Shown here piece by piece: positions 25,077-27,329 of a DNA stretch of 64,000 nucleotides; the first letter of the stretch is position 1, and each line of letters begins with the position of its first letter. Source of the stretch: Escherichia coli. Lineage in GTDB: Bacteria > Pseudomonadota > Gammaproteobacteria > Enterobacterales > Enterobacteriaceae. The position numbers and the translations under genes were made by a program. The notes under the pieces are model-generated. The model did no database searches. It was given only the letters and a program-made list of their open reading frames with translations, and was not told where the DNA came from. The stretch is taken from NCBI RefSeq assembly GCF_003334785.1, contig NZ_QOWV01000011.1; one strand, written 5' to 3'.

Positions 25077-27329
25077 TTATAAATAGAGATAGTTCGGCGG
25101 TTCTCCTGTTTTCCCTAAAAGAAGAGCGCTACGCCCAGGAATATTGATATTTAGAGTTCCGCCTCTAAGCGTAAATACTTTACCAGGGGGGATAATTTTT
25201 CGGGTATTATTAATAATAATGTTAACGCTATTACTCCCCATGTTTTTGTATATTCCAGGTTGCAATTTGTTAGGCCAGGTACCTTCAACTTCTTCGTTTC
25301 CTTTATTTATTATAACTAGTCCATCATGAGGAGAGTGATTAATGTTCACAGAATCCCCACGACTAAAGGCCAGAACGTTTTTAGTTGCAGATACACCCTC
25401 AAATGCGCTCCATATTCCTGCTTTATCTATATATAATGCGTGGAATTCATTGTAGAGCTGCTGATAGGTAGAGCAACCTTTATTAAGCTACGCCTCACCG
25501 CCGACACGCGTGGACCCATCATAATTTTTAATTTCAGTCGTTGATTTTAATACTTGGCCATCCCAGTAAACTAAAGGCCTGCTGAACGGCAGAGCGGCTA
25601 TATATGCCATTGCTAATTGTTCATCTTGTTGATGGTTAAATAGAAAGTCATTGAAAAGATTACCATTGTTAGGAAAATCGTGGTTAATGTTAATCAATAT
25701 CCGTCTTTCTGATGGGATACTTGAGATTGTGGAACCCGGTTTTGATGCAAGGGTTTGAAGATCTCCACCAAATGAAAAGGCTTTTATCGTTTTCATGAGC
25801 AATGAAAAATCAATGGCGCTTAAATCATCTCTTTCATAAAGCAGTGATGACATTTGTTGTTCATCCAACTGACAAGTTACCAGATATTCCATGTAATTCA
25901 TAACGGCTTTTTTATGATATTTTGGGTTAAATAAGTTAGTATTGTGTAACCGCTCATTATAATTTTTAAGCGGTGGGGTTATTGATCTTTCTATTTGTTC
26001 ATGTTTTGAGTGTTTTGCCGCATCATAACGTAAACCTCGTACGCCATATTTTCGCATTTCACGAACGTATTGATTTTGCAACATAATAACCTGGTCACTT
26101 TTGGGTGTTGTTTTAGGCATTCCATTTAAACGCTTTTCTTTTAATGCATGGAGGTTTTCCCATTCATCCTTAGAGATGTTATCTTTACTTGCTTCGAAGT
26201 CTTTTGCAGTGAGATGTATATCTTCTGGATGGATTTGTTTACGTTCTTTTGTTACTGGATCTTTAATGAATGGAATCAAAACCTGACCTTGCTAATAGCC
26301 AGGGATACCACCTTCTATATCTTTACTGATCTTCGCTCGTATATCAGCAGAGGGATAATCCAGGTCATTTTTACCACTACCCCCAATTCCCATAAAGTTA
26401 AAGGTATAATCAGGAATGATATCGATACCAAATTTTTTAGCATCTTTAACCAATGCAATAAAATCCTGCAAATCTCCCATTGGATTATGGATGGTACAAA
26501 GATCTTCGGGTTGATAAGCATGAAACCAGTAACCCTTTTCTTCTTCGGGAGTTTCTGGTCCGTCGGCGCGGAAAGTTGTCACTGGAGGGATTTGTATATA
26601 CCCATAATGGCAACGTGCAAATTCAGACATATTTTCTCTGATCTGCTGGTAGGTGGCATTAAAAGCATGAAGAATCGCTTCGCCAGGTTTTTTGGGGGTG
26701 ATGATTTCACATTGTGATTTCTGAACAGCAGTAAGAGATTTACGCTCAAGTGTTTGCCGTAGATGTTCTAGATTGATTAATATTTTAAATGTTTCTTGCT
26801 GTCCGGAAGGTGACGTCACGTTAATATTATATACATCGGCTGCCAGCTCATAGTCAGGAATGTTAATAGCATATGCAACATATTTATCTTTTGGGGAAGG
26901 TTTGTCAGATATAATGTGGGTGAAATGTTCAGCACGACCATACTGATAAACACCGCTGTTATCACCTCTTTCAATCATTGTATCTCGTTGATAAACCTAT
27001 GTTTTTCTTTCTCCTATCCTGTCTGGCGCTGTAATGCTACGCTGTGCTGCTTTATTCAACTCTCGGTAAGTTGTATCTGGAGAAAGGGAAATTTTATAAT
27101 CGTTTTTTAACAGATCATTAATAACTTTTTCTGCGTGAAAAGTTGATATAATTTCTCTGTCTTTTAATCCTTGAGGGTAAACTCCACAAGAATTAATAAT
27201 ATTTGTTATACAGTTTAGATATTCTAATGTATTTAATTTGGAATTTAGATCCCCGTCAGTAATGTTCCATGATAACAATGTGGGGTTGTCGATAGGTAAA
27301 TTTCTGGGTCCTGGTTTTATAGAAAACAT
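25077..27329 (-). pseudogene. ygaQ: ygaQ: GH13 alpha-amylase-like gene interrupted by three in-frame amber codons
   Basis: Four track ORFs (26997..27329, 26292..26978, 25488..26279, 25077..25349) are all in one reading frame and separated only by TAG codons at 26997-26999, 26292-26294 and 25488-25490 (plus-strand cta); product carries the GH13 region II motif GLRYDAAKH. Confidence 0.8.

Follow-up and report, generated by a model that had tools for sequence, protein, structure and literature searches.

ygaQ of Escherichia coli K-12: a GH13-like gene very probably inactivated by three amber mutations of different origin

Introduction

The ygaQ locus of Escherichia coli K-12 belongs to the annotated pseudogenes of this organism. 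In MG1655 it carries the PGAP label 'alpha amylase C-terminal domain-containing protein, pseudo, internal stop', and historically it was divided into small ORFs, e.g. ygaQ and ygaR. The gene has been handled as an H-NS-silenced, horizontally acquired gene (PMC7229825).

Regarding the encoded protein, the best sequence and fold matches are the GH13 AmyE-type amylases of Bacillus subtilis (PDB 1BAG, 1UA7 and 3DC0) and Amy16 of Ruminococcus bromii (9QF9). Regarding the stop codons, two further systems are suitable for comparison. Genes with programmed recoding (UAG-pyrrolysine, UGA-selenocysteine) share with ygaQ only the presence of in-frame stops of one type in a long frame, and deamination at Dcm 5-methylcytosine creates amber hotspots, as in lacI. 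Searches of the accessible literature revealed no link of ygaQ with amber codons, nothing on natural amber suppressors in connection with pseudogenes, and no alpha-glucan hydrolase or transferase assay of YgaQ. The new aspects of this study are the ancestral Trp codons, the population frequencies of the ambers and the recombinant origin of the triple-amber allele.

Results and Discussion

Reading frame and identity of the locus

The window, i.e. the whole stretch of 64,000 nucleotides that was analysed, harbors ygaQ at positions 25077–27329 on the minus strand (37% GC). Translation of this region gave 751 codons in a single frame, including the terminator TAA (25077–25079), and the 750 sense positions are interrupted at codons 111, 346 and 614, in all three cases by TAG. 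A first-pass annotation of the sequence had described exactly this frame, and its coordinates match. It had also stated that frameshifts are absent, which is correct because K-12 ygaQ aligned without gaps to five intact alleles of 2253 nt. Upstream of the ATG (27327–27329), at a distance of 8 bases, a Shine-Dalgarno-like AGAGGA (27338–27343, minus strand) can be read from the sequence.

The open frame far exceeds chance. In 2000 shuffles of the same 37%-GC sequence, on average 52 in-frame stops occurred and never fewer than 30, in comparison to the three observed, and the other five frames of the region contain 39–86 stops each. The locus is 100% identical to that of MG1655, with no difference, and is flanked by glaH/csiD and ileY; together with the PGAP label, this confirms the presumed identity with the K-12 ygaQ pseudogene. 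The locus is therefore already known as an annotated, GH13-like and decaying pseudogene.

Intact alleles and purifying selection

Seven intact alleles of 750 codons were found (L004–L007, L011, L020 and L022), and a cluster of 750-aa proteins comprises 15,629 member sequences. An ortholog of 738 aa occurs in E. albertii, and the family as a whole is nearly restricted to Escherichia. Between intact alleles, dN/dS ranged from 0.08 to 0.24. Intact ygaQ is thus under purifying selection, and its ancestor was a real gene. The ratios between pseudogene alleles (0.16–0.28) were still below 1, and most simply, nearly all of these differences are older than the inactivation; on the branches after inactivation, the substitutions are too few for a dN/dS value and the alleles mosaic.

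The findings that characterize a unitary nonsense pseudogene, namely intact alleles, derived stops at conserved sense codons, purifying selection on the intact copies and ongoing decay, come together at this locus. It can be regarded as a classic example of horizontal acquisition followed by decay in some E. coli lineages and retention in others.

Relationship of YgaQ to the GH13 family

The first-pass annotation had noticed the motif GLRYDAAKH and assigned it to the catalytic region of GH13 alpha-amylases. This assignment was substantiated, as the motif (residues 432–440; 26010–26036, minus strand) aligns to region II of solved GH13 alpha-amylases, where GLRWDAAKH or GFRYDAAKH is found, with D436 as the presumed nucleophile. 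G432, R434, D436, A437, K439 and H440 are invariant in alignment A1, and the same applies to E481, H550 and D551. All positions of the GH13 triad, D436 (region II), E481 (region III) and D551 (region IV), are thereby present and invariant across A1, including the distant GH13 proteins. The Asp-x-x-x-Asn-His of region I was not matched: D307 is conserved to at least 90% in A1 and N311 is invariant, but in E. coli, E. albertii and the protein P0008 the next residue is Phe (NFMG), in contrast to NHM in the distant GH13 proteins.

Pfam searches detected the catalytic (beta/alpha)8 region weakly (PF00128, E = 7.6e-4; residues 264–475; 25905–26540, minus strand) and the alpha-amylase C-terminal all-beta domain with E = 2.7e-5 (PF02806; residues 649–738; 25116–25385, minus strand). 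The latter lies downstream of the third amber codon and consists of beta strands in the AF2 model, with pLDDT values of 66–90. The NCBIfam scores were far under the cut-offs, and neither Pfam nor NCBIfam revealed a domain in the N-terminal ~215 aa. A phmmer search against the PDB gave amylases with E-values from 1.7e-7 to 5e-6, namely B. subtilis-type amylases and R. bromii Amy16. Despite the low quality of the AF2 model (mean pLDDT 51.5), the top 50 PDB hits of a Foldseek search with this model were GH13 proteins, nearly all of them alpha-amylases (best E = 1.7e-16, TM 0.62 on the target). Usable fold hits came from the GH13 core only, and for the N-terminal ~215 aa the model was too poor.

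YgaQ thus shares the region II motif, the Asp/Glu/Asp catalytic positions and the C-terminal beta domain with the AmyE-type amylases and Amy16, but the identity is only about 16–27%, the His of region I is replaced by Phe (N311-F312), and YgaQ possesses the additional N-terminal region. By reading the sequence alone, no hydrophobic segment resembling a signal peptide was seen at the N-terminus. From these features we infer that intact YgaQ is a divergent cytoplasmic GH13 enzyme. An intact allele, such as WP_001521106 of strain ET625, would represent a so far uncharacterised GH13 variant restricted to Escherichia, in which region I is unusual and the N-terminal region has no recognised domain.

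Ancestral codons and frequencies of the three ambers

Amber 1 (codon 111; 26997–26999), amber 2 (codon 346; 26292–26294) and amber 3 (codon 614; 25488–25490), all on the minus strand, correspond to TGG in all intact alleles. The comparison with ygaQ alleles from other genomes, as proposed in the first-pass annotation, therefore gave the same answer for each TAG, and each amber is a G>A transition in a Trp codon. All three positions are also Trp in E. albertii (P0005; 60% identity). In A1, distant GH13 proteins included, the conservation of W614 reaches at least 90%. Amber 3 removes the C-terminal beta domain.

The three ambers are natural polymorphisms that differ in age. Among 5426 complete genomes, TAG111 was present in 1041 and TAG346 in 1082, and codon 614 was TAG in 2403 and TGG in 1655. 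TAG614 is the commonest of the three K-12 lesions and probably also the oldest. In the sampled alleles, TAG346 was always paired with TAG614 (K-12, L014, L015 and L018), and TAG111 also occurred without the other two ambers, on the frameshifted haplotypes L002, L012 and L013. Written in the order of codons 111, 346 and 614, the haplotypes in the sample form a nested series (W,W,am; W,am,am; am,am,am), and additionally am,W,W occurs together with a frameshift.

The view that the lesions are of the amber type only, with neither other stops nor frameshifts in other strains, held in part. Codons 111, 346 and 614 are plain TGG in the other strains, but elsewhere in the gene TAA107, TAG413, deletions of 1 nt at nt 580 and nt 1192 and an insertion of 1 nt at nt 1640 were detected. 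Further damage consists of IS5, IS1 and IS3 insertions and of IS3-associated 5' deletions, and no match to ygaQ was obtained in 1317 of the 5426 genomes.

Recombinant origin of the triple-amber allele

K-12 and L013 do not differ in nt 1–761 of the gene but show 46 differences in nt 762–2253 (P = 6e-9). In the comparison of K-12 with L014, 11 of 13 differences are located within nt 264–658. This distribution shows that TAG111 originated on a different haplotype, which already had a frameshift, and was transferred to the K-12 allele via recombination. The imported 5' tract (gene nt 1–761; 26569–27329, minus strand), which contains amber 1, was acquired by homologous recombination with an L013-like haplotype as donor. 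ygaQ is a compact and clear case of a pseudogene allele in which several lesions were brought together by intragenic recombination.

Taken together, ygaQ is very probably a unitary pseudogene, which was inactivated by nonsense mutations in the lineage leading to K-12. With regard to the order of events and the lack of a product in K-12, we infer the following course. The AT-rich gene, nearly restricted to Escherichia, would have been acquired horizontally and maintained by some E. coli lineages. At first, W614 would have been changed to amber, with loss of the C-terminal beta domain, and then W346 on the same haplotype. W111 was independently changed to amber on a different, frameshifted haplotype, and homologous recombination carried this amber, together with ~760 nt from the start of the gene, into the K-12 allele. 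Each lesion is a common type of change, a G:C>A:T transition affecting the middle G of TGG. In the suppressor-free MG1655, translation would end at codon 110, and no full-length YgaQ would be formed.

Significance of the amber-only pattern

The probability that three of three nonsense changes result in TAG is 0.013 for uniform mutation, 0.024 for the spectrum derived from the alleles and 0.046 if only transitions are considered. Three of three ambers are thus only marginally beyond chance, and the pattern was noticed post hoc. With the empirical spectrum, the probability that the same base is hit in three of 9 Trp codons is 7e-4, for a category that was picked after seeing the data. The first-pass annotation had considered the amber-only pattern notable; this gained no support, as simple G>A changes at conserved Trp codons, which occurred at separate times and on separate haplotypes, were joined by recombination. 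The three ambers are best read as a coincidence aided by transition bias rather than as evidence of recoding or suppression.

Counterpoints to the reading of ygaQ as a pseudogene with coincidental ambers are the P values of 0.013–0.046 for three of three ambers, the three hits among 9 Trp codons, the ambers in ypjC and in the O157 ygaQ allele, the dN/dS below 1 between pseudogene alleles, and the activity reported for the over-expressed 110-aa protein (PMC4725251).

A real excess of ambers, caused by a mutational or selective bias, is an improbable alternative. A possible mutational bias is C>T deamination that affects the strands asymmetrically, with the leading strand as its target. Alternatively, tight knock-outs might be favoured: tRNA-Trp can read a UGA in place of a Trp codon, and such a leaky allele would restore the wild-type protein, which would give TAG alleles an advantage. 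The adjacent pseudogene ypjC/ypjCB (28715–30088, plus strand), of which the O157 allele is intact (WP_000906744.1), also has a single internal stop of the amber type (codon 161, CAG > TAG; 29195–29197). All four internal stops of these two adjacent K-12 pseudogenes are therefore TAG, and all represent C>T on the plus strand of the window. Beside this, three of only 9 TGG codons were struck at the middle G, and TAG accounts for four of five independent nonsense events in 23 alleles (P = 0.013–0.058). However, these P values are marginal and were obtained post hoc. The strand asymmetry of the four K-12 ambers is not significant, since the coincidence on one strand has P = 0.125 and the spectrum of derived alleles on the sense strand (G>A 23 vs C>T 19) shows no strong asymmetry. 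Furthermore, frameshifts, IS insertions and TAA also kill ygaQ, so that amber is not generally needed. That nonsense alleles spreading in the H-NS-silenced island are generally skewed to TAG (three times in ygaQ, in ypjC and in the O157 ygaQ) is likewise improbable.

Dcm-dependent deamination in CCWGG was rejected as the source of the K-12 ambers, because these are located in the contexts CATGG, ATTGG and CGTGG. In this respect they differ from the amber of the O157:H7-type allele (CAG413>TAG, 304 genomes), which lies inside GACCAGGTT and represents the classic hotspot change CCAGG>CTAGG; this amber has its own explanation. The other pseudogene in the window with the label 'internal stop', the remnant of an arsenic transporter (40544–41559), is heavily degraded, and its translation is uninformative on the type of stop.

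The 110-aa fragment as a putative gene

Fragment 1 (codons 1–110; 27000–27329, minus strand) lies within the N-terminal region of ~215 aa and corresponds to the 110-aa ORF designated YgaQ in W3110 and in the ASKA collection (PMC4725251). The ASKA protein consists of 110 aa and has D25, D27 and a C-terminal Glu-Arg-Lys (Bolt et al. 2016, PMC4725251). Fragment 1 contains W21 N I T D25 G D27 and ends with G E107 R108 K109 T110 stop; from the agreement in length and in these residues it follows that both are the same polypeptide.

According to the same study, IPTG-induced ASKA YgaQ relieves the MMC sensitivity of ΔruvAB cells, purified 110-aa YgaQ degrades 5'-ended ssDNA, and both activities are gone in a multi-site mutant (PMC4725251). 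On this basis, the fragments could be functional genes, with the 110-aa YgaQ as an ssDNA nuclease for mitomycin C tolerance, and a new small protein would have come into being through amber 1. The Shine-Dalgarno sequence ahead of the ATG would fit this assumption. Nevertheless, we consider it very unlikely. The fragment is the truncated N-terminus of the 750-aa protein, and a nuclease-like folded domain was not found in it, as Pfam and NCBIfam gave no domain in residues 1–215 and the AF2 pLDDT is below 50 across almost all of residues 1–212. Moreover, TAA107 breaks fragment 1 in related haplotypes, and TAG111, which defines its end, is the rarest of the three K-12 ambers. A ΔygaQ single mutant had no phenotype, the effect required over-expression (PMC4725251), and the region is silenced by H-NS (PMC7229825). 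As the 110-aa YgaQ of the ASKA collection is a truncated piece of a GH13-like protein, the functional claims should be tempered.

Suppression, read-through and recoding

A full-length product would be formed only with amber suppression, as the first-pass annotation had pointed out, and formally the read-through of three UAGs is required. It is extremely unlikely that the host lineage had an amber suppressor and that ygaQ is still made in full length by suppression or programmed read-through. All stops of ygaQ are of the type read by classical suppressors, and such suppressors do coincide with the gene in laboratory strains: TG1 (supE44) has TAG346, and C600, DH5alpha, JM109 and XL1-Blue carry a tRNA-Gln with the anticodon CUA. 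However, the ambers occur in 1041–2403 genomes, mostly of natural isolates, whereas the supE-type tRNA-Gln(CUA) was detected in 158 of 5426 genomes, and among the matches listed (60 of 158) the carriers were almost all laboratory K-12 derivatives or their transconjugants. For the same reason, the idea that the ambers arose in the laboratory, in a supE ancestor of K-12, was rejected.

Conserved or programmed stops were also rejected, as the intact alleles have TGG and E. albertii has Trp at these positions. Within the window, ARAGORN identified no suppressor tRNA but only tmRNA and ileY (27889–27964, plus strand), which has the anticodon CAT, is annotated by PGAP as tRNA-Ile and is located at the edge of the low-GC island; a local suppressor was thereby dismissed. 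Classical amber suppressors place Gln, Tyr, Ser or Leu, not Trp, and with the supE type it would be Gln. A suppressed YgaQ would therefore be a triple mutant, with the near-invariant W614 among the replaced residues, and three serial events would result in a very low yield. MG1655 itself is sup0. Unlike the genes with programmed recoding, ygaQ has unconserved stops, no dedicated tRNA nearby and decaying relatives. The TAG-bearing haplotypes continue to gain frameshifts, IS elements and deletions, which argues against the ambers being tolerated through suppression. In principle, the three UAGs could be read through in common supE44 cloning strains as well as in strains that are recoded or lack RF1, and a little protein with substitutions of W111, W346 and W614 might be formed.

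Sequencing or assembly errors as the source of the stops are excluded by the identical alleles in more than 1000 independently sequenced complete genomes.

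Reading frame and identity of the locus

Translation of the window at 25077-27329 (minus strand) yielded a single 751-codon frame, which ends with TAA (25077-25079) and contains internal TAG stops at codon 111 (26997-26999), codon 346 (26292-26294) and codon 614 (25488-25490), all on the minus strand. The first-pass annotation had described exactly this arrangement of three amber codons in one frame. A frame with only three stops is not due to chance: in shuffles of the 37%-GC sequence the in-frame stops averaged 52 and never fell below 30, and each of the segment's other five frames contains 39-86. 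A Shine-Dalgarno-like AGAGGA precedes the ATG at a spacing of 8 bases.

The segment matches E. coli K-12 MG1655 with 100% identity. The NCBI pipeline labels it there as a pseudogene with an internal stop, under the product name 'alpha amylase C-terminal domain-containing protein'. In addition, the first 110-codon fragment corresponds to the ASKA library's 'YgaQ': D25, D27 and the C-terminal Glu-Arg-Lys, as named by Bolt et al. 2016 (PMC4725251), match exactly. Together, these results show that the earlier identification as the known ygaQ pseudogene was correct. The locus is flanked by glaH (csiD)-lhgO-gabDTP on one side and by the tRNA gene ileY on the other, and lies at the border of a low-GC island which also contains ypjC, ypjA and the CP4-57 region. 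Bolt et al. 2016 also point out that in MG1655 ygaQ forms one frame with the 'alpha-amylase gene ygaR' downstream of it. ygaQ is an ordinary, decaying and already known pseudogene. Within the library searched, no paper connects ygaQ with amber codons.

Ancestral codons and the intact product

Among 22 other E. coli ygaQ alleles fetched for comparison, seven (L004-L007, L011, L020 and L022) are intact and annotated as normal genes. The K-12 sequence aligns to them without gaps and therefore has no frameshift, as had been claimed from the sequence alone. Comparison with other strains, which had been proposed as a check, revealed TGG at codons 111, 346 and 614 in every intact allele; E. albertii has Trp at all three positions, and W614 is kept even in distant GH13 proteins. 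Each K-12 amber accordingly goes back to a G>A transition in the second position of a Trp codon. Where it is intact, ygaQ is constrained and functional, as the dN/dS values of 0.08-0.24 between pairs of intact alleles indicate.

The intact protein L004 (750 aa) showed a weak Pfam match at residues 264-475 (E = 7.6e-4) to the catalytic domain of alpha-amylases and a clearer one at residues 649-738 (E = 2.7e-5) to their C-terminal beta domain. A PDB sequence search retrieved alpha-amylases of the B. subtilis type as well as R. bromii Amy16 (E = 1.7e-7), and GLRYDAAKH aligns with the region II motif of these enzymes. R434, D436, K439, H440, E481, H550 and D551, which include the Asp/Glu/Asp catalytic positions, are invariant when the protein is aligned with its E. 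albertii counterpart, a single metagenomic relative and distant GH13 proteins. In region I (residues 307-311, window ~26395-26409), Phe replaces the canonical His in the Escherichia clade (DYTFNF). An AlphaFold model from this shallow alignment was poor (mean pLDDT 51.5; N-terminal 212 residues almost all below 50); the top 50 Foldseek hits of this model in the PDB were all GH13 enzymes, nearly all of them alpha-amylases. The GH13 assignment based on GLRYDAAKH thus stands in the form that the product is putatively GH13-like. The family is very narrow: outside E. coli its members are an E. albertii protein (60% identity) and one protein from a metagenome (34%), and all that comes next are GH13 proteins at 22-27%. 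The N-terminal ~215 aa matched nothing known, and inspection of the N-terminus by eye revealed no signal-peptide-like hydrophobic segment.

The 110-aa fragment

Bolt et al. 2016 (PMC4725251) report that over-expression of the 110-aa YgaQ fragment gives mitomycin C tolerance and that the fragment degrades ssDNA, which might point to a function of its own; however, a single ygaQ deletion had no phenotype. The fragment is just the N-terminal end of the truncated 750-aa protein, and it has no recognisable domain. An independent function is therefore unlikely. PMC7229825 counts ygaQ among the horizontally acquired genes that H-NS silences and that have spurious promoters inside them, and such silencing fits low expression and weak selection.

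Origin of the three amber codons

Allele counts in 5426 complete E. coli genomes were obtained with 55-nt probes carrying the variable base inside every 28-mer seed. TAG614 was present in 2403 genomes and TGG614 in 1655, TAG346 in 1082 and TAG111 in 1041. Some part of ygaQ occurs in about 4109 genomes and at least 80% of the gene in 3368; about 1300 of the 5426 gave no match.

The sampled haplotypes are nested: amber 614 occurs alone (L008, L009, L010, L016, L019, L021), with amber 346 (L014, L018), or with both others (K-12, L015). Amber 111 as the only one of the three was found in L002, L012 and L013, always with a frameshift. K-12 and L013 do not differ at nt 1-761 of the gene (window 26569-27329) and differ at 46 sites past nt 762 (P = 6e-9), and 11 of the 13 differences between K-12 and L014 lie within nt 264-658. 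The K-12 allele is a recombinant mosaic: this pattern indicates that amber 111 was born on a different, already broken haplotype and that homologous recombination of the first ~760 nt carried it into the K-12 lineage's allele. Haplotypes and recombination together trace the ambers to three distinct mutations in two or more lineages, i.e. independent Trp>amber transitions joined by recombination. Among E. coli alleles, intragenic recombination is extensive along the whole gene.

Significance of the amber-only pattern

In the reconstructed ancestor, TGG occurs 9 times, CAG 11, CAA 21 and CGA 6 times. How many of the one-step nonsense paths end in TAG, as a fraction, varies with the mutation model: it is 0.24 for uniform mutation, 0.29 for the spectrum estimated from the alleles and 0.36 for transitions only, giving probabilities for three TAG out of three of 0.013, 0.024 and 0.046, respectively. 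That all three are TGG>TAG has a probability of about 7e-4 with the empirical spectrum, for a category set post hoc, after the data had been seen. A real amber bias might also be suggested by the adjacent pseudogene ypjC/ypjCB (28715-30088, plus strand), whose sole internal stop is an amber at codon 161 (29195-29197; derived from CAG, the codon of strain 2013C-3492, with CAA in the intact O157 allele), so that all four internal stops of both K-12 pseudogenes are TAG. All four are C>T on the plus strand of the window, although this is not significant (P = 0.125). In the derived-allele spectrum, however, G>A (23) and C>T (19) give no strong asymmetry between the strands, and Dcm deamination is rejected as the cause because the K-12 ambers all lie outside Dcm sites. 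A real amber bias is thus very improbable, and the pattern is treated as a mild coincidence aided by G:C>A:T bias; the significance implied by the first-pass annotation is not supported. A laboratory origin is ruled out, all three ambers being natural polymorphisms.

Further lesions and suppression

The O157:H7-type allele (L003, Rafaela_II, 4001-6253) carries the amber CAG413>TAG (304 of 5426 genomes) within GACCAGGTT, a CCAGG Dcm methylation site. Such sites are classic hotspots of 5-methylcytosine deamination. L012 has the nonsense mutation GAA107>TAA, and frameshifts were found at nt 580 (-1, L002), nt 1192 (-1, L012 and L013) and nt ~1640 (+1, TTAA-CATT > TTAATCATT; L009, L016, L021 and L023). 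The latter occurs on TAG614 and on TGG614 backgrounds, indicating recurrence or recombination. Independent IS5-like (ISKpn26), IS1 and IS3 insertions interrupt the gene in four genome-search matches (H1, H8, H12, H27), and L017 and L023 have IS3-associated 5' deletions. Other stop types or frameshifts at the three K-12 positions in other strains had been named as a refuting observation; TAA107, TAG413 and the frameshifts are other lesions elsewhere in the gene, whereas the three K-12 sites themselves are Trp codons in intact alleles. Several of the additional lesions sit on TAG-bearing haplotypes, as expected of a gene that is dead rather than kept alive by suppression.

Apart from the tmRNA gene ssrA (54114-54476, minus strand; tag ANDENYALAA), the one tRNA gene of the window is ileY, with anticodon CAT; there is no suppressor tRNA. 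MG1655 is sup0. With the MG1655 glnX-glnV tRNA cluster (L025) as reference, a tRNA-Gln with CUA anticodon (supE type) was detected in 158 of 5426 'complete' genomes; the 60 carriers listed are almost all laboratory K-12 derivatives or their transconjugants, among them C600, DH5alpha, DH1, JM109, XL1-Blue, HB101, J53 and AB1157. Hence, at least 1000 natural amber-bearing genomes are without a supE-type suppressor. A few listed carriers have non-laboratory source labels (ETEC1738 from pig, PJ-T13, USML2). The amino acid that a classical amber suppressor inserts is Gln, Tyr, Ser or Leu, not Trp; supE44 cloning strains would at best form a low-yield W111Q/W346Q/W614Q product in which a near-invariant Trp is changed.

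Other elements

The region upstream of ygaQ beside ileY is variable: some strains carry IS2, IS3 or IS1 there, and ETEC L012 has prophage-like DUF4942/DUF957/DUF5983 genes. A recombinase fragment (30425-30592, plus strand) adjoins ypjC. The window further contains a frameshifted MFS transporter pseudogene (4233-5410, minus strand), a degraded arsenic transporter and glutaredoxin remnant (40544-41724, plus strand) and, between ssrA and ypjA, a CP4-57-type island whose genes include toxin-antitoxin and anti-phage ones (rnlAB, ypjF/yfjZ, abpA).
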